Below the pieces are notes generated by a model. It worked only from the letters and a program-made list of their open reading frames with translations, did not search any database and was not told the DNA's origin. The position numbers and the translations under genes were made by a program. A stretch of 63,769 nucleotides of DNA, the filler included, from Ionaspis alba (lineage: Eukaryota): assembly GCA_964255285.1 (NCBI GenBank). It is 6 parts of 6 records of this genome, joined end to end, with 100 filler letters (N's around TTAATTAATTAA, not from the genome) between each part and the next. Parts side by side here need not be neighbours in the genome. Positions count along the whole stretch, not along the records: positions 53,254 to 63,769 come from CAXUUL010000602.1; 5 more parts are not named here. One strand, given 5' to 3'. Positions 10,589 to 63,769 of this stretch are shown one piece after another. The stretch's first letter is position 1; each line of letters starts with the position of its first letter.

Positions 10589-10632
10589 NNNNNNNNNNNN
10601 NNNNNNNNNNNNNNNNNNNNNNNNNNNNNNNN

Positions 10633-10644
10633 TTAATTAATTAA
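10633..10644. other. Artificial contig-join linker TTAATTAATTAA inside N-runs (also 21292-21303, 31931-31942, 42568-42579, 53198-53209)
   Basis: Identical palindromic 12-mer with stops in all six frames, always flanked by Ns. Confidence 0.93.
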
Positions 10645-10913
10645 NNNNNNNNNNNNNNNNNNNNNNNNNNNNNNNNNNNNNNNNNNNNAGTATATCATCC
10701 CTCTCGCGCCGTCGCCAGCGCCATGTCCACCCCTCCTGCGAAGGAGTTCTTTTCCATATCTATATCTCCAGTATTTCGTCAAACGTATTTTCCAATTCCA
10801 GCACACACCACCAACCACACTGGGAGTCGAAGCAAGATAATCGCAGGCCCAAAGAGCCGCCTCCTTTACGTCCTCGCCGCGCTCCAATCCTGACGATGTC
10901 CGGTTCCTTATCT

Positions 10914-18691: not shown

Positions 18692-19694
18692 ATGAACAAG
18701 AAGAGGCAGCATAGCGGTAAAGGTCGCAAGGTGGGTTTATCTGTTATTTAATCTTCAATGCTATGTGTGCTAACGCCTGGGGTATAGAGTCGTCTCACTG
18801 TCCGGAAACAAAACGTGACTTATAGTAGTGCTCCAATCTCTGCAAAGGCAGGCGAATTCGCAAACAGATACAGGTGGAGAGCTTACAAGATGTAGGCAAT
18901 CAAACGAAAGCCTGTAGCTACCACTCCAGCTACAATCTCAGGAGNNNNNNNNNNNNNNNNNNNNNNNNNNNNNNNNNNNNNNNNNNNNNNNNNNNNNNNN
19001 NNNNNNNNNNNNNNNNNNNNNNNNNNNNNNNNNNNNNNNNNNNNCGTTTTGTGAAGACACCCACAACCGAGATTCTTAGCTTTGGTAAGAGTTCAGGACA
19101 CAAAGCAGCTGCTCAAAGCATCTCAAGCCAAACAACATGCGAGTCTTTCGAGCTAGACGTGACGTGGAGGCAGATGGTGAACAGCCTTCGAAGCATGTAT
19201 GGGACTTATCCAATGGTGGGCTCTCTCCATCAAGCCTTACACGGTGTATAACTAATCGCATGTCATTTTTCTAGGAAGGCATTCTCCGCGAAGCAACTGG
19301 CAGTGTCTATCGATGGTACAATGCGAAGGACGGAAAACCTCCACATCCCGCACACGGTCGAGAATTCTTCGCCCGGAATCTATGGTGTGCAACGCACAGT
19401 AAACCCTGCCCAATCTGTGGCTCATCCTGTTGCGCTCAGAGGATGGTTCGCCGCGCCGCGACAGAAAGCGAAAATAGTAGAGAGAAAAAGGAAGACTCGC
19501 ATTGGATGCTTCGACAGATCAATAAGTGGATCCCGATTGGCGTTGACGCCACAACTTTTGCTCTTTGTACGGAGTGCCACAGAAGAGTGTGCCCGAATTG
19601 TTTTGGAATTTGTCCGAATAAGATATGCGGAGATCGGATGTGTATTGAGTGCCATGTGCAGCCTTTTACGGAGTGTGACTGGCACGAATACTAG
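18692..19694 (+). CDS. Uncharacterised spliced Cys/His-rich, probably zinc-binding, protein spanning a 100-N gap
   Basis: Intron 19216-19274 (GTGGGC..ACTAAT..CTAG) joins two frames in phase. The last exon encodes WCATHSKPCPICGSSCC and CTECHRRVCPNCFGICPNKICGDRMCIECHVQPFTECDWH. A 5' intron at 18731-18787 has GCTAAC. The 5' structure is uncertain. Confidence 0.65.
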
Positions 19695-20953: not shown

Positions 20954-21758
20954 GGAGGTCGAGAGGGGTGGCTTTAGGGAGTGGCATGGATAGGAGATCC
21001 TGGATGGTTAATCTGGCGGATAGCTAGATGGTAGCATGCCCAATGGCTCGCAGACTTTCATCTGACTGAGGCCAATCCGTTTGATATGGCTCGGCTTGCT
21101 CGATATGTGACTTCTGAGACGTCTTTCACGGAGACTGATAGATTGTTGCGGAGTTGTTTTCAGGGTTCTACAATACCTATCAGCCTGTCCCTTGCCTCTG
21201 ATAGATCCACCGTGGGAACAAGCCGATCTCGTGAAAACCTGCTTAGGNNNNNNNNNNNNNNNNNNNNNNNNNNNNNNNNNNNNNNNNNNNNTTAATTAAT
21301 TAANNNNNNNNNNNNNNNNNNNNNNNNNNNNNNNNNNNNNNNNNNNNAGTGGTACGCTGTTCAAAACAAAAGAACACCGTAGATTCTGCATCTCTTCATC
21401 CGAGCTATCCTGTTACCATAGCACTGAGAGCTTCAGTGACATGGCAAGAAGTCCCTATCTATACACACGAATGTGAGGTGCCGTGCACGCGGTATCATCC
21501 CATATTTTGGAGTCCCAACCAACACCACGCAAATGCAGGCCGCAATTATTAGCACATAAACAGGAAGTGTGCCGCCAAGTCTATCATCAAACATTCAACG
21601 CAGCGATATGCAACGCTAAAGATCAAGGCTGTCCAAAAGACTGCCCTTTCATCCTGCAAAACCGGTGAGATCGTGCTGCGAAATCTTCATGCATAGAGCA
21701 TAGATCGATAAGCATGGTTGTGAGATGACCATGGTCAACGGTAGACAGCGAGGTCATA

Positions 21759-31886: not shown

Positions 31887-31985
31887 NNNNNNNNNNNNNN
31901 NNNNNNNNNNNNNNNNNNNNNNNNNNNNNNTTAATTAATTAANNNNNNNNNNNNNNNNNNNNNNNNNNNNNNNNNNNNNNNNNNN

Positions 31986-32088
31986 NGGGCGAGGGGGGGA
32001 AGGAGGTTGAGGAGGGCGAGGAGCTTGAGGGAGGCGAGGGTGTCGAAACGAAGGGCTTTTGAGTCGTGGCTTCAGCTTCAGTAGCCAT
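31986..32088 (-). CDS. Possible 5' fragment of a gene running into the gap (MATEAEATTQKPFVSTPSPP...)
   Basis: ATG in good context (AGAATGG) with an open Ser/Pro-rich frame up to the Ns; no recognisable domain. Confidence 0.25.
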
Positions 32089-42523: not shown

Positions 42524-42623
42524 NNNNNNNNNNNNNNNNNNNNNNNNNNNNNNNNNNNNNNNNNNNNTTAATTAATTAANNNNNNNNNNNNNNNNNNNNN
42601 NNNNNNNNNNNNNNNNNNNNNNN

Positions 42624-49296: not shown

Positions 49297-51474
49297 ATGT
49301 ATACAGTTTCCATACTGCAGCATTTGGGTGCGCCTCTCCAAATTGTCATATTAGAGGCTGGGACTGTCGATCGAGCCGTCACCCGAGCTGTCCAGTATGA
49401 CGAACACGGACACCTCGTTATTCGGTCCCCAAATGGGAACACACCTTGTGCTCTTCTACGTCGGCCTTTTCACTCCTAGTGGCTTCTCGTAGCTGACTAG
49501 CTTGATACAGACTGTTACAAATACGGTGTTACCATCGAAGCTTTCCGATTGGGTCTGAGAAGCTTACCGTCGCTTCCCACCAACCATCGACGTGAGACAG
49601 AGGATATGGGAATCCCCATTCTCCAATCGAGATCAGATGCAGCATCCTACTTTCAGGTGGTTCCGGGAACAACCATCTCCGTCGGTAGCGCTTACTTGAC
49701 CTTTCACGTCGATTGTGCAAATCAAACTCATCAGGGTTCTGATAGAGAAGCTGACGATGTTGGTCCTACGGTGACTTCCATCAAGGCTCAGGAGTACGAG
49801 AATGAGACTACCCGTTACAAGGTAACGAAGCCACGGTCTTCGCCAAGAGGTGATGAAGCTAGGAGTTCGACAAGTAGAGTTCAACCATTCTACGATACAC
49901 CGGCGATCAACAAGGACATAGAAGGGAGCGCACACAGAGATACTAATGACGGAAGCGCTGACAGAGAACTCTTAACAACTGTGCAGCCAGCCCTACGAAC
50001 CCAAACGGCTGCGCCTAGCGATCTGAAGACTTCAAACCTCGTTAATCACGAAAATGGAGATGGTGATCTAGGAGAGACAATCATGCCGGCAACACGTGAA
50101 GCACATTCATTCAACAGCACAACGTCGTCCACTGAGTATTCCGAAGTGGCAGCGACTACCTTGCGAACAGTGCTAGCTCTGGATGAAGTTGAGTCTCTTC
50201 AAGGGAAAGATGACACACAAAACAGCAATCGCAGAAGAGCGGATGAGTTGCTCAGCCTCGCGCGGAGTAGCCTGTCTCCACCGTCAAGCCCGCCTATCGT
50301 ACCACTACTAGAGACTGTAGAAATTGTCAATATTGATAGACAAGGCTTGGACGACCTAAACGGTGGGTATACTGATGATAGGAAACCTTCTGAAGATCAG
50401 GAAAACATCCACAATAGCGAGACTGATAGTGAGCCACCCACGAAACGAACAAAGCGTCTGAAACGGCCCTCTCGCAGGGTCCTAGAGCAATGCGACGAGA
50501 ATATCGCCGCTTTGCAGGCGGCTAGGCCCCGTTTGTCTCCAGCCGTCCCTGGTACAACCATTGAAGACAAGCACACAAGCACAAATCAGGCACGGAGAAG
50601 AGATAGCACCGTCAGCAGTGCCAGCACTGGTAGTGTCATCTATCTGGCACCACAGGCACCTCCTGTTCGGGCCTCGAAGCCAGCGAGAACATACAGTCGA
50701 AGATCTCTTCCTCAGCCCATGCTCACTTCATCCGGCCGGCCTTCATCGCAGCTTAATTCGACCAGCACTACTACGACAAGTGACCATCGATTGAGCATAT
50801 TCTTCACAAGCTCGACCGAGGTGGACGAGTCAATCATTATGATGCGCAAGTTGACCAAAGCTGGAATGAGGAAAGTTGACAGTGTAGCGGATTGCGACTA
50901 CATCTGTGTTGGCAAGGATGCTGAACTGAAAAAGACTAGTCATCTGATTCTTGCTGTCTCGTCCGGCAAGGCAGCGATCACAGATGACTGGGCAAGGGAA
51001 AGTGCAAAAGGGAAGAAGCTCCTCGATCCTCTAAAGTTCCTAGCAGGCGATCCCATGCGCGAGGTCCAATGGGGCGTGACACTCACCGAAGCAGTCGAGC
51101 GTGGAAAAGAAGGTCGAAAACCTCTAACGGGCACTACCATTCTCTTCACGACGTTCATGAGAAACGACTTAGGCAGCAAGAACTTTGAAGAGCTTAAGAG
51201 AATTGCCATGCACGGAGGAGCGAGATGTGTCCAAGCTCGTGCACCGAGACCTGGCGACGACAAAGAGGCCACTATCATCTTATCATCTCTCAAGGATCCT
51301 GCCCTTGATAAATGGCTAAGGGCTGGATGGCGGTGCTATTCTAAAGACCTGATCACGATGACCGTGCTTCGAGGTGAAGTTGACCTATACAGTGCTGAGT
51401 TCGCGCTGGGGACTGTGGAGGAAGGCGGTGAGGTCGCAGAAGAGAGGGACTGGAAACATAAGAGAGGTGATTGA
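49297..51474 (+). CDS. Tandem-BRCT protein with degenerate FHA-like N-terminus (Mdb1/MDC1-like architecture)
   Basis: C-terminal BRCT pair (IFFTSS..YICVG..LKKTSHLILAVSSGKAAITDDW; PLTGTTILFT..GA..YSKDLITMTVLRG). A phase-consistent intron 49460-49510 (CTGAC..CAG) links the ORF to ATG 49297. Confidence 0.75.
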
Positions 51475-53721
51475 GATCTCAAAGTAAGGAACAGTTGATA
51501 GGTAGGCATAATGTGCAGCACAAGCCGTTGCAAGGGACATTGTTTACCAGGTTGATGAGTCATGCTATAATGCAGTCAACGGTCATGGGCGCTGCGGTCT
51601 GCGTGATGAGGATGGTTTGAGTGTTCTAAAGCACGAGCATGTTTGCTTTCTGGAAGTATTGACGTACGTGTGTACATGTGGCTGGCGCTCTAGTGGCTCG
51701 GAAGGCTTTTGGCAGGTAGTTGAAATAGATACTCTTGGTATCGCCTTTGTCACGCTGTGCGTCTTTAGCTACAAAATATCCTAGTCTTTCAAACGGTCCT
51801 GCGTCTATAGAGAATCGAACGGTTCTGCGTGCTACGAAACAAGGACCTCAACTGCCGCTCTTCGCACGGCTCTCGAGTATCTAGAGTTTGTATGCACCCC
51901 GCCCTTTCAGGCATATTGTCGCTTATCGTGACGCATCTACACTCTCTGCACTGTGGGTGGGAACAAGCTTCACTGAATCAAAGCTTAAAGATATGCAAGG
52001 GTCCTGGGAGACAGACGTGGCGGAGCAGGTTGCGTAGGCGGAAGGGATGGATTTTGGTAATATCAAAGCTTAAGTATGTAGGGATATGCTCGATCGTCAC
52101 TGGGAAGAAACGTACAGTTTGTGACTCTCTCAGAGATATTCTTAGGTCTGTTAAACGGATCACCTGCAAGCTCTAGTGCCTAGACTGCAGAAGCTCAAAG
52201 AATCCGCCACAGCGACGATGGCTTGCGATGGGCGTTCCTATAGAGAGTATGCGATGGGAGAGAGGAGGATTGTCTGATATCTTGTCGGCGAGGAACTGGC
52301 GGACTTTTGCTCATGGTGGGACAGGAAGAGTAGGGCACTATTCGGATTCCATTTATTTAGAGTATTACTCGTCTCTTCCCGACCGTGACCGGCCTTGCCA
52401 TCAGTATAGAGAACCGTATGCTTGATATCCCACAGAGCATTTGGATCTGAGCCGATGGCAGTGGTCCAGGCTGAGGATATGCATCCACAATCGATACTGC
52501 TAAGCTTTTCTCCCCAGGGCATCCCGAGGTCATCATCACGAGCAATGGGCGACCATCACAACAAATGCACCATCTCAAGGCACCTTCTCAGACTTTCCAA
52601 GAGCAAAGTCTACCACGAAGCTTCTTTCTTACCCAGGCACAGAACACAACCACCCTCAACCCACAGACAAAGGACCCCTCCTCCTCCCTCCCCTGGCCCT
52701 TACAGGCACACCCAGCATAAATAAACGGCAGATTAACCCCGTGCTGTGCACCCCTTATGCACCTGCACAACCCCCTTCCTTACAAAACCACAAGCAAGCC
52801 CAGAGCGCTCCTCCTTCTCAAGCCATCTAAACGCTCCACTCACGCCTCGCCCCTCCACCTATCAGGCCGTTCATCAATAATGGACTGCGCCAGATTGAGT
52901 TAGCTGGTCCAAACACTTAGATCTTCGACTCTACATGTCCTAGTCTACCAACTACTATGTGCAATGTGCAAAATATAATCGATTCATGTGATTCCGTTGA
53001 GCACGCGGACAACTACTGCGAGGATTTTTTTGAGTATTTGCTTTGTGTGCTCAGGCTGTGCGCGGATAGATGGGATGGGTATGGGTATGTTGCAGATTTC
53101 TGATATGATATGGCAGCTTTGAGAATTGACAGGCCGGCACCGGGGGTTTAGGGNNNNNNNNNNNNNNNNNNNNNNNNNNNNNNNNNNNNNNNNNNNNTTA
53201 ATTAATTAANNNNNNNNNNNNNNNNNNNNNNNNNNNNNNNNNNNNNNNNNNNNGTCCGGGAGATAGTCAGGCAGCTGTGGAGGGAGGGAGGGGCGACGGT
53301 GTGATAGGGACTGAGAGATGGTGTTGGGGCTCTTGCTTGACATGAGGGGAGATTGATAGGTATCGCGGATCAAGAAGTACGGTAGATGGGACGAGAATAC
53401 AGGGATTATGAAAGGGCAAGCGGTGCAGCGCCTCCGAAGAGCTACCGCTCAGCTTTAATATATATGTGAGTTTCCAATGCAAGCTTAGTTTTTGCTTATA
53501 TGATGTACCCCTTCAGACAACCGCAACCCCGCGTCTCCCCGCTAAATACTTCATATCATATGGCTAAACAGGCTCCAGGATAATTTCCGGCCTTTAATAA
53601 CCATTACATTCATACACCTCTCTCGATCCTATTTGTAACGAACCCAATCGACACCTGCTGTTATAACAGACTCACCCAAACCTCACTATTACACTCAAGC
53701 ACCGCCAATCACAAGCCGATC

Positions 53722-53904
53722 ATGTGTCACACGCACGTCAAGGCCTATACCAATTGTACGGCCCAGCCAAAACACGTATACACCCGAGAGTTCAAATGTG
53801 TCGACGCCCAAAACCGCGATCCTCCCGCCTGGTGTCAAGTCTTGACACCGAGCGCCTACGGCCAGACGGCCCCTTGCGTACAAGGGATGTTTATGATCCT
53901 TTAG
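53722..53904 (+). CDS. Small Cys/His protein candidate (MC-x9-C-x5-H-x7-C-x11-C)
   Basis: 60-aa ORF preceded by a C/A-rich leader typical of fungal 5' UTRs; 3' end uncertain. Confidence 0.4.
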   Translation: MCHTHVKAYTNCTAQPKHVYTREFKCVDAQNRDPPAWCQVLTPSAYGQTAPCVQGMFMIL

Positions 53905-54763
53905 AAAGCGCAGGGGGACTGAGCAGTCCTGGGTTACCTCTGGGTTCAGCACGAATCAAGGCACGTCAGTCTGTTCCTCGTCAATTCACCGCTGCGGGAT
54001 TCGAGCCACCTGAAGGAGACCTGACGGTAGGTAGTAAGTGCACTTGTACCGATATGGGTGGCTTTCCAGCCCGGCTCGGATCACTGTATTGCTGTAGCGG
54101 TCGTTGCATTGTCCGAACAGGATCTTCGACTGAGTCATAGTCAGCGTGGAATTTGTTCTTCGAGGTGGGAATTGTACAGAACAGTACATAAGTAGTGAGA
54201 CAGGCTAAAATAGCGTAAGCCACAATACAAGGATAATAACAAAAATAATAATAAAAATAAAAAGGATATTATATACATGTATATATGTTAATTACGTGTA
54301 CTAGCGTAGCTTTAGCCCCTTGGCAACCACTATATCTGAGTCCCTGATCTAATATATGGGCTCGTACATATCTCAGCTAACTATCGTAAACGGAATCTCG
54401 CAGAGCGCTACGCCGAAGGAAATAATATCTGGACAGTACTCGCGGCGGTCAGCAAGATTGGAGCGCCAGTCATCAAATTGATATACATGGAACTGTTCGA
54501 CAGTCGTACCAAAATAAAAGTACCGAAGTATCCCCACATATATTCAGATTGAAGTCCGTGAAGAGCAAACCTACAGGCTAAGCCAAACAGTAAGATTACC
54601 TAGACGGGCCTTTAACATGTCAATACGTGTTGAGAAGAGATGGTTGCATTGTTCAAAATCTCGAATGATTGGCGTTCTTTCGAAGTTCACACAAGGCAAA
54701 AATCTGTAAAGAAGCGGTCTGATATCCAAGACGGCCTTTCAACGGCTTTGACCTGAGACTACG

Positions 54764-56265
54764 CTAGTAGGAGCAATGGCCGCAGTAGCCACAATCCTCG
54801 GCTGAGCAGGCCGTGTAGTCCTTCTCGGACTCATCATCAGACAACTCGAGGGGATCTAAGTCCGAGTCGGGGCCATAGCTCTCAACATAAGATCTTGCGT
54901 CCGAATACGCTGTACCCGTGGACCCTTCGTCACTGTCCTGAGGCGGTTTGTCATCCGCAGAGCCCGTCTGGTTTGCGAAAGCGCTTGTCGTCCATCGCAG
55001 TATTAGTTCGACAGGCAATACGTGCTCTTCCATGTGCTGCTCCCGCAACTCCAGCTTGTGCAGCTCCTTGCGGTACACTTCTAGCTTCCCATCCTTCCTC
55101 GCTCTCGCCGCGGCGATGATCTCACGAAGCAGCCAACCGAACTGTTTGATGTCTTGCTGATTCTCCTGCTCCCAATTGTGCAGATCCTTCTGCACATCCT
55201 GCACGTGGACGTCTTCCGGCACGAACATGCCACGATCGTGGTAAGCAAGGATGAAGTTCGGAATCTGGGCCAACCATAGGCGAGGGAGCTGGTCTTGTAG
55301 TACATCCAGGCTTTTCGAGTAAGACCCGCGCGTCTTAAGGTCGAAAATGGCGGCCTGTGGCACTTCGTGGCCTGTCTTGGTGACCTTCAAGGGGGCCGTG
55401 CGGTCCTTGATTTCACGTGGAGAACTGGCGAGTACTTTATGCAACGGCACATCATCGTTTCCATCTGAACGCTCCTCGCAAACAATGGAAGTCTGAAGGG
55501 CGTCGTGTGCCTCGGGAGCCTTAGAGGGAATGTAACCATCACATCCAGACCTCACCAAGCAGTTGAGCCCAGCAAATCGGTATCTGAGCAGCCGCTGATG
55601 CGACACAGATCCCTCGACACCGGCATCCCACTGGGTATTCGCGTCAGGGAAGGTGTGACCAAAGCCTCTAACCCCTTCGATCAATTGAGTCGGCGAATTT
55701 TCTTGCCGGAGGAAGAAGACCGTGTTGCCGACAACTTGAACGAGGAAACGAAACCGTTGCTCGATGCGTCGAGCAAAGCGAAGGACATTGCCTAGAGTGC
55801 TGGAGCACGCGAACAGTTCTATTTCTTGGCCGTCGAAGTCCTTATGCTGCGTGAGCAACGCCCGCACCGCAGGTTCTAGAGGACGGTGAATGCGTGCAGC
55901 ATTCGGATCACGGAAAAAGTCTCCTTGATCCTCTTTCAGCTGATGTTCCCGATTGACCGGCGTCCAGGCTGGTGGCGCTCCTGTTGCAATCTTCGCGTCA
56001 GCGGGAGAGCTCCGGTGGCCATTTCTTGAGGGGACAAACCAGGAATGAGAACCGTTGGCGTATTTCGGTCTAGCCAGTTGTAGGAAGCGACGTAGACGCA
56101 GTCTGTAATAGTTTCGTTCTGGTCGTCCTGAGACTTCGCGCAAGTGTTGCTGGCTTCCTGTCGATACAGGGATCGGATGAGAGAGCCTAGGGGCGGAGTC
56201 GGTGGTCTAGGCGGCTCGGTGCGAACACCCCCGCGTGCTCGCTGCCGTCTGAAGCCACCCCTCAT
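54764..56265 (-). CDS. Rai1/DXO-like PD-(D/E)XK-fold protein with RGG N-terminus and C-terminal C4 motif
   Basis: Exon 1 (MRGGFRRQRARGG..ASYNWLD..PTVLIPG), intron about 55983-56039 (GTTTGT..CTGAC..CAG), then exon 2 with GFGHTF, CLVRSGCDGY, IFDLKTR, RLWLAQIPNFILAYHDRG and terminal CSAEDCGYCGHC. The fold assignment is inferred from motif order. Confidence 0.7.
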
Positions 56266-56630
56266 CTTTCCCTGTCAGCTTAAAACCTTTATTTCTGATG
56301 TTTTGAGGAAGATGTTGATTAAGACGCGTTCTTATTCGCATTCCATGAGTAGAAGCAGTTCAAGCGGCCAGTTTGGGTCGATTGCTCTGTCTGGGATCAT
56401 CTATGAAGTTCCAGCTACGAGAAGTTACATGGGGCAACGGCTACCTGCTTTATCTGCAAACACCCCCGCTCTTTATCGAGCTCTTCACCACGGCTGCAGT
56501 AGCTCAAGACTGTTGCTTCACGTATTGAGCTCAGTCCCATGTCGAGCCACCTGAGCTCTATTCTTTAGTGGCAGCACCTTTTTTGTATGCCTTAAATTTC
56601 CCCTACTGGTTCACTCTGCATTAAAGCTCA
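56266..56630. promoter_or_regulatory. Putative bidirectional promoter (365 bp)
   Basis: Lies between divergent ATGs at 56265 (-) and 56631 (+) with no gap. Confidence 0.55.
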
Positions 56631-59600
56631 ATGGCCTCGGCCGGCGCCGACCTAGCCCTCAAGTCAGCGCGGCTGTCGAAGCTATTCAACGCTACTATCT
56701 ACGGGAAGCGTGCCATCAAAAACGCTAACGACGCTAAGCTTTTCCTTGAGGCGACATGCCACCAAGAAGATCGGTCTAGTTGCGTTGAAAAGCTGGTGGC
56801 TGCACCTCAGGGGCTCCAAGCCATCAAGATAAGCCTGCGCATTGAAACCTCCAGCACTTTCGTCAACGAGTGTAGTACTGACTTCCTAAGATATATTACT
56901 GATGACAGTGTGAGGCTGCTGTGCGGCGGACAGCTGTTTCGCGATATTCTGCGTGTGGTTGTAGACCCTCCAACGTTTTGGAAGGCTTTGGAAAAGTACT
57001 ATGTTGAGAGGAACCTTTCGCAAAGCGGCATCTACGCCTTTGCGTCTCTCCTGCTGGATCTGCTTTGCTCCCCGCCCCCTTCTGTACAAACGGATGTTCT
57101 TGAGATCGCAGAGAAGAGCCTTCGTGGCTTACTCGAATCGCCAGATGATGAGGTACGTGGCCTGGCATACAAGATCCAGGACGTTGTGCGCAACAAGGCA
57201 TCTGGCTGCCATGGAACAGGCACCTTCAAACCTGGCGGCCGGCATGATAATGACTTCGAGGACTTCCGAGACATCGCCATTTATCCCACGGCGGATGAAC
57301 TTCTCGCGAAGGACCCACCGTTCTACCTGCAAGCCGAGGCTGTGCTCCAAGCAGAGCCAGAGAAAAGAGTTGCCGCCTACTTGGACAATCAATTCCGCTT
57401 GCTAAGAGAGGACATGCTAGCAGAACTGCGCAATGACCTTCAAATTGCGCTGGGCAACAAGCAAGGAAGACGAACCTCCCTGCGACTCAAACAGCTCGTT
57501 CTCCATAACATTGATTGTGGCGTTGTGCAGCGGCGAAAACCAGCTGCAATTGCTCTTCGTTGCTATGAAGGACTACCGAAGCTTGCCGGGAAAGATGAAG
57601 ACCAGCGCCGGAAATTCTACGCCGAAAATAAGACATTTTTAAAGCACAATTCCTTTGGTTGCCTACTACGTTCTAACAACATTGTAGCATTTGCGACTGT
57701 TGACAGGAATGAGGAGATGCTTGCTAAGGAGGCCCCCATCATTCTGCTTCAAGTCCTCGGCAGCTCGACAACTACCAAGATGCTAGTGACATTGAAAGCT
57801 GCGCATCAGGATGAGCTGGAGTTTGTCCTCGTCGACACACCGGTCTTCGCCTACGAGCCGATCTTGAAATGTCTNNNNNNNNNNNNNNNNNNNNNNNNNN
57901 NNNNNNNNNNNNNNNNNNNNNNNNNNNNNNNNNNNNNNNNNNNNNNNNNNNNNNNNNNNNNNNNNNNNNNNNNNCTCTCCCGCTGAGAAAATTGAGTAGG
58001 AACGGGAAAATCCTTCGTTGGGACACTTCTGATGAAGGTCCTGCTTGAGCACTCTAACGAGAACATCTTAGTTCTGACTTACACAAACCACGCGCTGGAT
58101 CAATTTCTCGAGGATGCTCTGGACATTGGCGTTACAAAAGAAGAGATGCTGCGCCTTGGCTCCAAGTCCACAGCGAGAACTAAGCCTTTGGGGCTGTGGG
58201 AGCAGTCCGTAAATTATCGCCGATCGAAACCGTCTTATGACTTGCTGACTAAGCACTCTGACGATGTTGACACGTTATCTGAACGCATCCAAGGAGAGGC
58301 TGCAGCTTTTAAGCAACTTAGAATCTCTAATATGGACCTTTTGGACCTTCTCGAGTTCTCAGACAGCGATTCTGATTTCTATTACGCGCTTAGCACTCCC
58401 GAAAACGCCGATGGAATGTCGACAGTGGACAGAAGAGGAAGGGCCATTGGATCATCCTATCTAATCGACCGGTGGTTGAGAGGTGAAAATGCTGGACTCT
58501 TCCAGCGTACTGTTGCCAAAGACTATCCGCAAATATGGGCCATGGATGCTCCGGCTAGAAGAGCCTGCGTGGAGAGGTGGACTCGTGAATTCTTCATGGA
58601 GCATGCTGTCATGCTGCAGAACACCCTCAAAGAGTATGCAGAGACCTACGAGCACTGGAGCAACGTGAGGGAAGAGAGATCCGCGGCTATCATTGGCGGA
58701 AAACGAATAGTTGGCTGCACGACAACTGCAGCTGCGAAGTACGCAAAGGAGCTATTGAATGCACGACCCGGAATCGTCATCGTGGAAGAGGCTGGCGAGA
58801 TCCTCGAAAGCCATATCCTGACAGCCCTATCCACCAACGTCAAGCAGCTGATCTTAATAGGCGACCACCAACAGCTACGGCCAAAGGTCAACAACTACGT
58901 CCTTACAGTCGAGAGAGGAAGGGGTTACGACCTCAACAAGTCTCTTTTCGAACGACTGGTCATAGCCGGCCATCCACACACCACACTTCAAAAGCAGCAT
59001 CGCATGAGACCAGAGATATCCGCACTTATCAGACATCTTACCTACCCCGACCTTCAAGATGATGCCAAAACTCTGAATCGTCCTCAAATACGCGGGCTGC
59101 AATCCAACGTCGTCTTCTTCAATCACGATCACCCCGAGGTCGAGAATCGGCAGCTGGCAGATCGACGAGATGAAGGCTCAAAAATCTCTAAACAGAATGT
59201 GTTTGAAGCTGAAATGGTACTGAAGATTGTGCGATATCTAGCGCAGCAAGGTTACGGGACGGACAAGCAAGTTGTGCTTACGCCATACCTGGGGCAACTT
59301 AGCCTCCTTTTAAAGTACCTGAAGGAAGATCACGATCCCGTCCTGAATGATCTGGACTCGTTCGACTTGGTCAAGGCCGGACTTCTACCTCAAGCGAGTG
59401 CTGATGCGAGCAAGCGACGGTTGAGGATTTCAAGCATCGGTAAGTTACGCAATCCGCAGCCATATATTGTGATGCAACAACTCGGACGGACAGCTACTGT
59501 TTCAGACGATATGCTTTGCACTGGGTTAGCGACTAACCTTTGCTCAGATAATTATCAGGGGGAAGAGAGCGACATCATCATAGTTAGCCTTACACGGAGT

Positions 59601-62600
59601 AATGAAAAGGGTGAGATCGGATTTATGGCCGCCCCTCAGCGGTTGAACGTCTTGCTCTCTAGAGCTCGTGATGGCCTCGTTGTCATTGGCAACTTCAAAG
59701 TTTTCACGACTAGTGGCAAGGGCGCCAAGACGTGGGGTCCTCTGGTCGAGAAGTTGAGCCAGGCTGGGCAGATTTTCGATGGTCTTCCTGTCAAGTGCGA
59801 TCGGCATCCCAAAAAGACTACGCTACTGAAGACAAAGGATGACTTTGACCGCGAGTGCCCTGATGGAGGATGCTCAGAGCCATGGTAATCACTTCGCTGC
59901 TCCCGTCTCCCTATCCACATATTGATACAAATTGTCAGTTCTGCCATGCTCAGTTGTGGCAAGCACAAGTGTCCCCAACGATGCCACCAGCTCTTCGACC
60001 ACTCTAAAGTCAAGTGCACACGAGTGCTGGAAGATACTTGCCCCCAGAACCACAAGATAACCTGGCAATGCTGGCAGCAGGCTCCCTCATGCCCCAAATG
60101 CGAGGCTGAGGCTCGAAAACGCGAGGCCCAGCGCCAGCGAGACCATCAACTCGATCTAAAAAGACAGGCAAACGAACGTGCGTATGCTCAGAAACTTGCG
60201 GAGCTGGACGAAGAGATCGCCCATGAAAGACGCCTGCAGAAGGAGCAAGCCGACCAGCTTGGCAGAGAACGCACTTTGGAGCAACGCAGGAAAGATCTCG
60301 CAAACGCTCGAGCTGCGACGCTATGGAACGTGGCCGCACATCCCGCAGAGGCTGAAGCAACGAAAGGGCCGAACACGGAAACATCGAATGGAGGTCATGT
60401 AAGCAAGACATTCTCTTCATCGCAATCAAATCCACCAGAAGGGAGCGGAGAGAGTGGAGGTACGGACCCCGCCGAGTCCCAAGCCAAGGCGGATTGGGAG
60501 TACCAGAAAAAGTTTGAGAACGCTGACAATGAGCACCTGGATGCTCTTTTCAAAATGATCGGCCTTGAGTCTGTGAAGCGACAGCTCCTCACAATCAAGA
60601 CGAAAATTGATACCTGCATCCGCCAAAAAGTTGACCTCAAAGACGAACGCTTTGGCGCGGCGTTGCTGGGAAACCCAGGGACAGGCATGTATAAGAGTGT
60701 CGGATCATTATGGTTGTCACGCTAACATTAAAAGGCAAAACTACCGTTGCTCGACTCTACGCCAAATTCCTGGCATCGGCTGGCGTGCTCCCAGGAGCTG
60801 CCATCGAAGAAACAACCGGATCAAAGCTAGCAAGTGACGGTATTCCAACCTGCAAGAAGCTCATTGAGGATGTGCTTGCAGCCGGCGGAGGAGCCATTTT
60901 CATCGATGAGGCGTATCAACTGGTCTCGGGGACGAGTTTCGGTGGTGCGCAGGTGCTCGACTTCCTCCTTGCGGAGGTTGAGAACCTGACCGGCAAGATT
61001 GTGTTCATCTTGGCCGGCTACAACAAGCATATGGAGAAGTTCTTCGCCCACAACCCAGGAATACCCAGCCGCTTTCCTCATTCATTCCAATTCGAGGATT
61101 ATGAGGATACTGAACTTCGCCAGATACTTGAGTATCAAATCAAGAAGCGCTTCCAAGGGCGGATGAAGGTGGAAGGAGGCCTCCAAGGGTTGTACTGCCG
61201 GATTGTGGCTCGACGGGTCGGTTACGGGCGCGGCCGCGAGGGCTTCGGCAACGCACGTGCCGTCGAAAACACCTTTGCCAACATCTTATCTCGCCAGGCC
61301 ATTCGCCTTTCGCGAGAGAGACGGGCAGGGAAAACTCCTGACGACTTGCTGTTGACAAAAGAGGATCTTATAGGTCCGGAGCCTTCGAGAGCCTTGGACG
61401 GCAACAAGTCTTGGCAGAAGCTTAAGAAGCTCACAGGCCTTGAAGCTGTCAAAGACTCTATCAAGGCGCTGTTTGACAGCATTCAAGAAAATTATGAGCG
61501 AGAGCTGGAAGAGAAGTCGTTACTGCAGTTCAATCTTAATCGCGTGTTTTTGGGCTCACCTGGTACAGGAAAGACGACGGTTGCAAAGCTTTACGGGCAA
61601 GTTCTGGCGGACATCGGCTTTCTGTCAAACGGGGAGGTCGTTGTGAAAAACCCATCGGACTTTGTTGGAGATGTCCTCGGAGCCTCCGAAAAGACAACGA
61701 AGGGAATCCTAGCTTCTACAGTTGGCAAAGTTCTTATCATTGACGAAGCTTACGGACTCTCCGGCACCGGTGCCGGTGGCAGCAATGCACCCGCGGACCC
61801 ATTCAAGACTGCGGTCGTTGACACAATCGTGGCTGAAGTACAAAGCGTGCCGGGTGATGACCGATGTGTGCTGCTTCTTGGATACCGGAGTCAGATGGAA
61901 GCTATGTTCCAGAACGTGAACCCTGGCCTTAGCCGCCGATTTCCCATAAGCGAGGCTTTCGAATTCGAAGACTTTACGGATGGTGAACTCAAAGAGATCC
62001 TGGCAATGAAGCTGCAGCAACAAGACTACACGGCCACGGACCAGGCGAAGAATGTCGCCATGGACGTGCTCAAGCGCGCACGCAATCGCCCAAATTTTGG
62101 CAACGCTGGAGAAGTGGATATCTTGTTGAACGGTGCAAAGGCTCGGCATCAGAAGCGCCGCTCTGCGGGCAAAGTAAAGGCAGCTGCAATGCTGGAGGCG
62201 ATTGACATCGACCCGGACTTTGATCGTGGTGAGCGGGCGGCCACCAATATGGGCATTCTATTTAAAGACGTGGTTGGCTGCGAAGATATCGTGGCGCAAT
62301 TCGAGGGCTACCAAAAGACGGTGGCAAACATGAAAGCTCGCGATATGGATCCACGAGAGCAGATTCCTTTCAACTTCCTCTTCAGAGGGCCGCCAGGTAA
62401 GTTACAAGCAAGTTAAAGCATTGACGACAAGATGATAAACAAGACCAGGTACTGGCAAGACCACGACCGCCCGGAAAATTGGCAAGATCTATTACGACAT
62501 GGGATTCCTAGCCGACGGCCAGGTTATTGAGTCCTCGGCTACTGAACTGATAGGTGAGTACGTAGGCCAGACGGGGCCAAAGACTCAGAAATTACTTGAG

Positions 62601-63769
62601 AAGGCTCTCGGCAGAGTGCTCTTCATCGACGAAGCGTACCGTCTTGCCGAGGGTCACTTTGCGAAGGAAGCAATGGATGAGATTGTGGACTGTCTCACGA
62701 AACCGTCTTTTTCCCAAAAGCTCGTCGTAATACTAGCAGGCTATGATGCAGACATCAACCGACTGATGTCCATCAACCCTGGTCTGACTAGCCGCTTTCC
62801 AGAGACGGTGACCTTTCGCAGCTTGAAGCCAACTGAATGTTGGAAATTATTCACGACAATATTGAAAAACAAGAAGCAACTCGATATTTCCTTGCTCCAA
62901 AAGCCGCCCGCCGGTCTGCAACAGGAACTTCTTCAGCATTTCGAAACACTAGCAAACCTTGCCAATTGGGCCAATGCCCGTGATGTGGGCACTCTTGCAA
63001 AGGCGGTCTTCGGCCAACATCTCCGGAATGCAGATCCAAAGTCGCGAGACCTTATTCCCCTCGAAGAAAGGCCTGTCATTGCGGCCTTCGAAGGGATGAT
63101 CAACGAGAGGAGCAACCGCGAAAACTTCTCAGCCACAAAACTGCCTGTTCATGCTCGTTTTCCAGAGCAAATTGCAGACCCGCGAATCGGAAACGCACCG
63201 CCATCCTCAGCTTCAAAGTCGACCGTCACAACCAGAACCACGGAACAGGCGCCTCCAGACTCGCAACCAGAACAGCAGGGCCCGAAAACCGAGTCTAACG
63301 ATCCACGCGACCCAGGTGTTAGCAGTGACATCTGGGCGGGTTTGCAGCGCGACAAAGAAGCAGCGGCTGCTCACGAGAAAGCATATCATGACCTCATCAC
63401 CCGACACGCCAAGCTCCAAGCCGAGCACGTTCGCGTTCAGCAAGAGGACGAGAAAGAGATCGCCAAGCAATCCAAGGAACAAGAGAATCGGATTGAAGAG
63501 CTTCGAAAACGTCACGCTGATGCTGAAGAGGAGGAAGCCGCGCGCCTTGCTTCAGAAGCAGACGAGGAGAAACGACGACTAGAGCGAGAGCGGCTACGAC
63601 GCTGGTTGGAAAGGCAAAAGCGCGCAGAGGAGCTAGCTGCCTTGGAGCGGGAAAGAAATAGACTGGCGGAAGAGAAGAGAAAAGAGCAAGCCGTCCAGAG
63701 TAAGTTGAGGACAATGGGCGTCTGTCCTGTGGGATACCGATGGATCAAACAAGTCGGTGGATATCGGTG
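56631..63769 (+). CDS. Giant ZNFX1-like SF1 (Upf1-family) helicase with NFX1-like zinc finger and three CbbX/SpoVK-type AAA+ domains; runs off the window end
   Basis: GGRHDNDFEDFRDIAIYPTADE and DNQFRLLRED; SF1 motifs GTGKS, TYTNHALDQF, VEEAGE, LIGDHQQLRP, SLFERL, QHRMRPEI, LTPYLGQ, IDNYQGEE, RLNVLLSRAR; CGKHKCPQRCH; three sets of GxPGTGKTT / hhIDEAY / NPGxxxRF; terminal CPVGYRWIKQVGGYR. Introns end at 57999 and span 59440-59547, 59885-59938, 60685-60734 and 62397-62448. Confidence 0.92.

Follow-up and report, generated by a model that had tools for sequence, protein, structure and literature searches.

A ZNFX1-type helicase followed by three AAA+ modules, and its head-to-head partner of predicted DXO fold, in Ionaspis alba

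The stretch of DNA analysed here (the window) comprises 63,769 nucleotides (nt) from six records of the Ionaspis alba genome (GenBank assembly GCA_964255285.1). On the plus strand of its last contig lies one long gene, the helicase-AAA gene, which is predicted to encode a superfamily 1 (SF1) helicase nearest to ZNFX1, a short zinc-finger stalk, three CbbX/SpoVK-like AAA+ modules and a C-terminal Cys-Cys-His tail. A partner gene, predicted to encode a protein of DXO/Rai1 fold, lies head to head with it. The window is a concatenation of contigs separated by 44N-TTAATTAATTAA-44N spacers (44N + 12 nt + 44N), so adjacency across the spacers is artificial. As contig C602 starts at 53254, positions to the left of 53254 contain no true neighbours of the helicase-AAA gene. 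The features are listed below (aa, amino acids).

10589-10688, 21248-21347, 31887-31986, 42524-42623 and 53154-53253: artificial contig joins with the spacer pattern
53254-63769: contig C602, the part of the window with the helicase-AAA gene
54764-56265, minus strand: partner gene, ATG at 56265, 480 aa, one intron (56039-55981), predicted DXO/Rai1 fold
56266-56630: intergenic stretch of 365 nt (start codons at 56265 and 56631)
56631-57874, plus strand: exon 1, 414 aa without a stop; N-terminal domain, then ZNFX1-like pre-helicase region; enters the N gap
57875-57974: run of 100 N within C602; expected content about 80 codons and the 5' part of an intron
57975-57999, plus strand: final part of the intron within the helicase Walker A motif, acceptor AG at 57998-57999
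58000-59439, plus strand: exon with SF1 helicase motifs I-IV and a large 1C insertion (AAA_11, AAA_12)
59440-59547, plus strand: GT-AG intron of 108 nt, immediately before motif V
59548-59884, plus strand: exon with helicase motifs V-VI, the counterparts of ZNFX1 F1210/R1216 and the first zinc finger
59796-60101, plus strand: cluster of 17 conserved Cys/His, a short NFX1-type zinc-finger stalk, split by the intron at 59885-59938
59885-59938, plus strand: intron of 54 nt, splitting the Cys/His cluster
59939-60684, plus strand: exon with zinc fingers, a charged coiled coil, a low-complexity linker and the start of AAA1
60516-61363, plus strand: AAA1, with intact Walker A/B, Arg finger and lid Arg but without an aromatic pore loop
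60685-60734, plus strand: GC-AG intron of 50 nt, within the AAA1 Walker A motif
60735-62396, plus strand: exon, joined in the 1834-codon frame
61397-62203, plus strand: AAA2; Walker A/B and Arg finger kept; an invariant Gly replaces the lid Arg; no aromatic pore loop
62246-63035, plus strand: AAA3; all motifs kept; CbbX-type Y-V-G pore loop; intron 62397-62448 in Walker A
62397-62448, plus strand: intron of 52 nt, within the AAA3 Walker A motif
62449-63769, plus strand: exon, running to the contig end
63350-63769, plus strand: C-terminal coiled coil, then the Cys-Cys-His tail, of which the first half is present (Cys at 63723) before the contig ends

The exons at 58000-59439, 59548-59884, 59939-60684, 60735-62396 and 62449-63769 join into 1834 codons with 0 stops. 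The joined frame contains the four P-loops noted in the first-pass annotation (TGKS at 58002, GNPGTGKT at 60669, GSPGTGKT at 61553 and GPPGTGKT at 62387), together with the three [IF]IDEAY and three NPGxxxRF motifs that it had assigned to the AAA modules. Two of the AAA Walker A motifs are formed only by splicing, one of them via the GC-AG intron at 60685-60734. Conservation was assessed in the 100 of 120 listed homologues with at least 2200 aa; a strict regular expression for all of the motifs originally noted was matched at once by 43 of these, and the catalytic columns were kept in 98-100.

The intron positions were compared across 80 related loci, in which those outside the following counts gave no call. 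An intron was present at the helicase Walker A in 60 loci (8 uninterrupted), at motif V in 50 (4 uninterrupted), at the EPC site in 37 (3 uninterrupted), at the AAA1 Walker A in 42, with a GT donor (4 uninterrupted, 34 no call), and at the AAA3 Walker A in 27 (0 uninterrupted). This conservation supports the predicted splicing of the helicase-AAA gene. The intron at 59440-59547 is in frame and stop-free, such that its retention would add 36 aa before motif V; in 11 of 50 related loci it begins with a GC donor.

The helicase and AAA parts, whose separation into two genes would have undone the first annotation, very probably belong to one gene. In 90 of 120 homologues, more than 1750 of the 1834 aa were aligned in one high-scoring segment pair, exon 1 was also matched by 111 of 120, and AAA1 lay downstream in 49 of the 51 loci with room for it. 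Exon 1 carries an invariant GRHDND motif, and its N-terminal domain had no Pfam match. The homologues have a median of 80 codons at the N run (range 57-98, n = 104 of 120) plus part of an intron, and the true gap should thus be longer than the 100 N given. With this estimate included, the predicted full protein is ~2330-2345 aa. Plain 100-N runs occur at positions 18945 and 57875. One DNA contig of run X1 spans 59300-63316 with zero differences, and no joints were seen in three runs of unrecorded kind, kept as contigs. Over the C-terminal coiled coil (63287-63679), minor X1 contigs showed 4-7 differences, and one lacked 9 nt (8 + 1, net in frame); these contigs represent a second allele or strain. 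The helicase-AAA gene is single-copy in the genome.

The helicase of homologue P0001 was nearest to ZNFX1 among PDB sequences (E = 1.3e-84, versus 2.9e-32 for UPF1), and a profile search gave 7e-145 for ZNFX1 versus 2e-57 for UPF1, or 5e-19 versus 1e-9 with the window exon alone. The first-pass assignment to the ZNFX1 type of SF1 helicase is therefore upheld. The helicase motifs were kept in 98-100 of the 100 full-length homologues, and the residues matching F1210 and R1216, the RNA-binding residues of ZNFX1 (bioRxiv 2025.09.05.674436), were kept in all 100. In the pre-helicase region, homologue residues 150-604 aligned to human ZNFX1 (E = 1.8e-17), while residues 1-150, which may correspond to the N-terminal armadillo dimerisation domain of ZNFX1, had no alignment to the ZNFX1 structure 9q9z and no Pfam match.

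Where the first-pass annotation had one NFX1-like finger, the finger region was recovered and the number was not: 17 Cys/His positions are conserved in 91-100 of 100 homologues, and the stalk would hold about 4 sites. The first zinc finger aligns to ZNFX1, and none of the fingers matched a Pfam finger model. The long Miz/Z-RING stalk was not found, as residues 646-818 of part B contain no Cys and are followed by the coiled coil and AAA1. The protein thus resembles ZNFX1 (PDB 9q9z; bioRxiv 10.1101/2025.10.14.682297 and 10.1101/2025.09.05.674436) in the helicase core with its large 1C insertion, the RNA-binding Phe/Arg, the pre-helicase region and the first finger. It differs in its short finger stalk, without the Miz/Z-RING or RZ E3 module, and in carrying three AAA+ modules and the Cys-Cys-His tail instead. 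A canonical ZNFX1, cut by a contig end, is also present in the genome (contig C718, L006:2794-8652), with CCCH fingers, a long NFX1 stalk and an RZ finger, and two more ZNFX1-clade helicases were identified on C259 and C459. As the canonical ZNFX1 exists in the same genome, the helicase-AAA gene represents a paralogue with a different output and not a damaged ZNFX1.

The CbbX/SpoVK likeness of the AAA modules noted in the first reading was confirmed by profile and PDB sequence matches to SpoVK, CbbX and EccA. The family models matched below their cut-offs (245, 204 and 202 bits for the two-module exon, versus 423, 459 and 467, respectively), and P0001, at 436.8 bits, exceeded the SpoVK cut-off only through the sum of its three modules. 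The modules have the AAA core with AAA_lid_6, the IDEAY motif and the NPGxxSR Arg finger; the lid was matched by Pfam in two of the three modules, and the third has a WANAR motif. They share these elements with CbbX (PDB 3syk/3zuh), SpoVK and EccA1 (9lur), as well as the Y-h-G pore loop in AAA3. The difference is that three specialised modules, mutually ~30% identical, stand here in one chain behind a helicase.

The Walker A Lys, the Walker B Asp-Glu and the Arg finger were kept in each module in 99-100 of 100 homologues. The modules are nevertheless not equivalent. The lid Arg, presumably the residue known as 'sensor 2', is replaced in AAA2, and an aromatic pore loop occurs only in AAA3 (Tyr in 94 and Phe in 6 of 100 homologues). 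Judged from these residues, the three modules appear to form an asymmetric motor with one gripping module in three. An AAA+ site requires the Arg finger of the neighbouring module. Since none of the three modules has lost Walker A/B or the Arg finger, the site of the terminal module should be completed by another chain, and head-to-tail oligomers of helicase-AAA chains would be expected, consistent with the oligomerisation in trans first proposed. A two-chain ring would be the simplest closure, and we consider ring and open spiral at roughly even odds; the open spiral stays viable because four- and five-module relatives exist, CbbX, the pore loop of which pulls the Rubisco tail, forms spirals (PMC5385338), and ZNFX1 forms polymers (bioRxiv 2025.10.14.682297). 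Three modules were counted in 32 of 49 tail-bearing representatives with a Walker B regular expression, which undercounts, and relatives with 4, 5, 6 and 7-8 AAA modules exist.

The terminal Cys motif of the first-pass annotation is real in the homologues, where it reads CxxG[FY]xWIKQxxGYRCxGGxH (Cys in 99, Cys in 97 and His in 96 of 100). It could not be retained for the window itself, where only the first Cys precedes the contig end at 63769. A model of the homologous tail showed a helix, a three-strand meander and a short helix (predicted local distance difference test score, pLDDT, 89.8). Fold searches with the model were dominated by matches to its long helix (Z up to 5.7), Foldseek gave none at E = 0.001, and an atlas search with the tail gave no usable match. 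An RZ finger was considered and rejected. No Pfam match was obtained at E up to 10 for five tails or P0001, and profile-profile comparison of 197 tails with those 76 of 120 fungal RZ proteins in which the motif is complete gave a probability of 0.6% (score 10.9, versus 10.6 +/- 3.0 for column-shuffled controls). The C718 paralogue, as a positive control, exceeded the RZ cut-off.

An alternative tail, CxxCGRAxxPYIxCxVxP (Cys3), unrelated to the main tail, was found in 12 relatives with an AAA1 insertion (P0225, P0235, P0243, P0252 and P0271 among them). Proteins with this tail that appeared to have four modules were in fact split AAA1 matches. With three conserved ligands each, the main and Cys3 tails might, speculatively, form an open or shared zinc site.

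RNF213 contains six dynein-like AAA modules in one chain. The link to RNF213 drawn in the first-pass annotation was not borne out, as no RNF213 chain was among the 34 PDB sequences matched and the tail is not an RZ finger. The likeness is one of concept only, namely tandem AAA+ modules, a Cys/His C-terminal element and an immune context, and the helicase-AAA protein has three modules.

The partner homologue was found head to head with the helicase-AAA gene in 32 of 80 metagenome loci, or in 26 of the 49 with at least 2.5 kb upstream, and never in another orientation. By cluster, the linkage held in 20 of 37 at 90% identity and 15 of 26 at 60%, and it was spread over the main branches of the helicase-AAA tree (a quick version, midpoint-rooted). 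The partner gene is single-copy in the genome, and ~0.01 head-to-head cases would be expected by chance. The 365-nt stretch between the start codons is likely a shared bidirectional promoter. The best 7-mer in the 400 nt upstream of the helicase-AAA gene in related loci, CAAACGG, occurred in 13 of 43 promoters, against 2.1 expected and a maximum of 12 after shuffling; it is absent from the window and was not accepted as a shared promoter motif.

Sequence searches alone failed to identify the partner; its assignment therefore rests on an atlas lead, weak Pfam matches and the fold. By phmmer and profile, nothing in PDB was below E = 0.35, and the profile matched the genome's own Rai1 fragment with a probability of 1.1%. 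The atlas clusters are named 'Geranylgeranyl pyrophosphate synthetase', with a RAI1 lead of 0.90 and the family on 49% of members. Pfam RAI1 matched 4 of 26 partner members, at best with 21.5 bits, below the gathering cut-off of 26.8. A model built from 26 sequences (pLDDT 77) matched Rai1/DXO structures with Z scores of 19.3-20.7 and root-mean-square deviations (rmsd) of 3.1-3.7 over 248-281 aligned residues. The best DXO match had Z 20.7, rmsd 3.4 and 277 aligned residues (Foldseek E = 2.8e-9); Dxo1 gave Z 16, eIF3d cap-binding domains 13-14 and everything else 5.3 or less. The partner is thus predicted to have the DXO/Rai1 fold.

Six DXO motifs have been defined (PMC6511851). The metal ligands of motifs III (EhD) and IV (EhK), mapped by motif order and not by superposition, were present in the partner family (E 23, D 25, D/E 25 and K 24 of 25). 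Relative to DXO, Rai1 and Dxo1, including C. elegans EOL-1, the partner shares the whole-domain fold (Z ~20) and, as a family, motifs III and IV. It differs in its 10-13% identity, the loss of the motif I and VI Arg, a Pro inserted in motif II, a Cys4 C-terminus and the conserved head-to-head helicase link. The canonical Rai1 is a separate gene in the same genome. The partner was missed in the first-pass annotation. Its C-terminus consists of an acidic stretch and a Cys4 motif (54764-54850; 15 of 29 open reading frames (ORFs) by strict regular expression, more by eye), and its start is RGG-like; in neither was a known DXO feature recognised. A 60-aa ORF with five Cys and three His lies downstream of it (53722-53904, plus strand).

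For the neighbourhood, 89 ORFs flanking the gene in 60 dereplicated loci, and one further ORF by itself, were compared with Pfam. An Argonaute gene was found within 7 kb in 4 of 60 clusters, in three lineages (41-52% identical), against an expectation of 0.14 (P about 4e-4 for 3). An RNA-dependent RNA polymerase (RdRP) gene adjoins in two loci, L047 and L069, and the order in L047:2-6274 is Argonaute, RdRP, partner, helicase-AAA. On the window's contig C602, neither Argonaute nor RdRP neighbours were found. Other neighbours included a dynamin-family GTPase (L084:1175-3019) and a HeLo protein with an RNase T exonuclease (L092:259-5825).

The AAA1-AAA2 exon matched 6471 proteins of 969-2765 aa at E up to 1e-20, of 8000 scored candidates. 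Among the best 120 matches listed, the named ones are from Pezizomycotina, and 116 have the helicase and AAA domains in one chain. The closest named proteins among the matches listed are ascomycete, the best being from Glonium stellatum (65% identity over exon 1 and 68% over the rest), and the AAA part is 63-82% identical among the listed homologues. The database labels vary between 'NFX1-type zinc finger-containing 1', 'CbxX/CfqX', 'Stage V sporulation protein K' and 'AAA family ATPase'. The ~2330-aa architecture is widespread in Pezizomycotina and has relatives in algae.

Among the best 150 representatives at 50% identity, of which 20 were identified by name and 12 scanned with Pfam, 44 had a helicase and 54 the tail, and many others were fragments. 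They include proteins with a helicase, five AAA modules and the tail in the green alga Cymbomonas, with a URGCP-like GTPase, vWA, three AAA modules and the tail in Mesostigma, and with NACHT_N, three AAA modules and the tail in Trichoderma; others have ankyrins and AAA modules, and one is a pelagophyte protein. Several distant relatives likewise lack the Arg of the AAA2 lid and have the AAA3 pore loop, suggesting that the AAA triplication is old or has moved between lineages. In P0213, P0249, P0303, P0211 and P0225, the triple-AAA cassette follows a URGCP-like GTPase with vWA, NACHT_N, ankyrins or MSP domains. A vWA domain between the fingers and AAA1 of distant relatives was discounted, as the MIDAS motif was present in only 1 of 13 segments. 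P0200 and P0169, both probably prokaryotic, each combine CbbX-type modules in a single chain, six in the first and seven to eight in the second.

What is read directly from these data is the domains with their catalytic residues intact, the pairing of the two genes and the genes around them. On this basis, we give an even chance to the helicase-AAA and DXO-fold pair being a cytoplasmic RNA-surveillance module directed at viral or aberrant RNA, likely antiviral or linked to RNA interference (RNAi). By analogy with ZNFX1, which loads on RNA, moves 5'-3' and forms polymers (bioRxiv 2025.10.14.682297), the helicase would load on single-stranded RNA and move 5'-3'. Chains gathered on one RNA would then link AAA3 to the next AAA1 in a two-chain ring or an open spiral. 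The AAA3 pore loop would grip and pull off bound proteins, such as viral replicase or capsid or the proteins of stalled ribonucleoproteins, with coupling supplied by AAA1 and AAA2. The co-expressed DXO-fold protein would read or remove the 5' end, and the freed RNA would be degraded or passed to RdRP and Argonaute. Relative to ZNFX1, a mechanical output is predicted in place of the ubiquitin-ligase output. In line with a role against viruses, the DXO homologue EOL-1 is virus-induced in C. elegans (bioRxiv 2025.03.10.638824). A further precedent is the part that the fungal ZNFX1-clade helicases SAD-3, Hrr1 and RnhA play in RNA silencing (PMC5384783).

A bolder version is offered tentatively. 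The pair could form a two-gene innate antiviral module of filamentous fungi. Its ZNFX1-type RNA sensor, with an asymmetric AAA+ unfoldase of three modules in place of the ubiquitin ligase, would gather on viral RNA, strip replicase or capsid from it and pass the 5' end on to the dedicated DXO-fold protein. The triple-AAA block and tail would then be an old eukaryotic immune remodelling cassette behind varied sensors (helicase, URGCP-like GTPase with vWA, NACHT_N and ankyrins).

Several observations weigh against a surveillance role for the pair. The helicase-AAA gene is single-copy and well conserved (63-82% in the AAA part), unlike many arms-race genes, and the partner is missing in 23 of the 49 informative loci. 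The partner motif I Arg is present in only 4 of 25 sequences, the motif VI Arg is replaced by His in 24 of 25, and in the window's own copy Gly takes the place of the Glu in motif III and Asp that of the Glu in motif II. The partner may thus bind rather than cut; it may be a nuclease of other 5'-end specificity, or a cap reader like eIF3d. The Argonaute statistic uses the density of one incomplete genome (4 loci in 18.3 Mb), the gene class was picked after inspection, and shared old ancestry is also possible. Three Argonaute loci of one lineage hold just a 55-aa remnant, and most other neighbours are unrelated housekeeping genes. Finally, the Neurospora protein NCU09357, probably the member of the helicase-AAA family in that fungus as matched by labels only ('stage V sporulation protein K' and helicase; PMC6468284, PMC3571971), is reported as conidiation- and sex-associated rather than induced by virus, and did not appear in those supplements of PMC7648066 that could be read.

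These observations on NCU09357 would favour an endogenous job for the same machine, as a cofactor of developmental or meiotic silencing, like SAD-3, Hrr1 or RnhA, that remodels RdRP/Argonaute complexes on host transcripts during conidiation or sex, which we regard as possible, with a likelihood well short of even. Neurospora SAD-3, S. pombe Hrr1 and Mucor RnhA are fungal ZNFX1-clade helicases that act in RNA silencing; at 999-1231 aa they are too short for an AAA block (PMC5384783). NCU09357 is the top Neurospora match of RnhA, is called uncharacterized and is placed outside SAD-3/Hrr1/RnhA in the same paper. It rises in late conidiation under ADA-6 control (PMC6468284, PMC11708020) and a list of genes associated with sex names it alongside QDE-2, an RdRP and an NFX1 helicase (PMC3571971). 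The Argonaute and RdRP neighbours fit an endogenous role equally well. However, three more ZNFX1-clade helicases in the genome could fill that role, the AAA-tail cassette also stands behind NACHT_N, ankyrin and URGCP-like GTPase domains, and the membership of NCU09357 rests on labels, not sequence. Housekeeping mRNA quality control, by a UPF1-like helicase with a motor for disassembly of messenger ribonucleoproteins or ribosomes and a decapping partner, with no tie to defence or RNAi, is unlikely. The high conservation and single copy would suit it, some database labels refer to nonsense-mediated decay, and DXO proteins do perform 5'-end quality control (PMC6511851); however, the canonical Rai1 is separate here, the helicase is of the ZNFX1 clade and not UPF1, the link to the partner is frequently missing, and RNAi genes lie next to the pair.

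Quite unlikely, in our view, is an RNF213-like switch without threading, in which ATP binding gates a catalytic or signalling Cys-Cys-His tail (e.g., in ubiquitin transfer). The tail is nearly invariant with a confident fold (pLDDT 89.8) and only three conserved ligands, two of the three modules have no pore loop, and the E3 activity of RNF213 is gated by its AAA core (bioRxiv 2025.09.05.674436). Against this, the tail has no RZ match and is swapped for the unrelated Cys3 tail in 12 relatives, and every Walker B Glu is kept, which implies ATP hydrolysis. That the helicase and AAA parts are separate genes, or that their join is an assembly or splicing artefact, is highly improbable. One of the junctions depends on a GC donor, the gene is broken by an N run, AAA-only annotations apply to 4 of the best 120 matches, and 106 of 150 distant representatives, many of them fragments, have no helicase; but the X1 contig crosses 59300-63316 without a difference, the frame is stop-free with conserved introns, and both parts stand in one chain in 116 of the 120 best matches.

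No description of the helicase-AAA fusion or of the gene pair was found in the literature covered, which left out most subscription papers and bioRxiv supplements. Neither is described in the accessible passages of PMC5385338, PMC5384783, PMC6468284, PMC11708020, PMC3571971, PMC7648066, PMC6511851, PMC11237814, PMC12511879, bioRxiv 2025.09.05.674436 or bioRxiv 2025.03.10.638824; those of bioRxiv 2025.10.14.682297 do not mention fungi or AAA, and those of PMC11959080 contain no relevant term. The architecture is real, common, listed in databases and apparently unstudied. As the architecture alone is already in databases, the interest is carried by the DXO-fold partner, the RNAi neighbours and the specialisation of the modules.

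Fungal antiviral defence is mostly described as Dicer/Argonaute RNAi. The database labels 'stage V sporulation protein K' and 'GGPP synthetase' conceal a conserved gene pair in which a homologue of a gene behind human immunodeficiency is combined with a predicted protein-pulling motor and a predicted cap-reading fold. If the surveillance reading is true, the ZNFX1 sensor would take interchangeable outputs, an E3 ligase or an AAA+ motor, within one genome, and the protein would be a rare case of an AAA+ motor whose asymmetry is built in, one of its three modules being the gripping one. Neurospora crassa now has viruses (PMC7648066).

Elsewhere in the window, on another contig, a 657-aa frame with weak BRCT matches was present at 49501-51474 on the plus strand.

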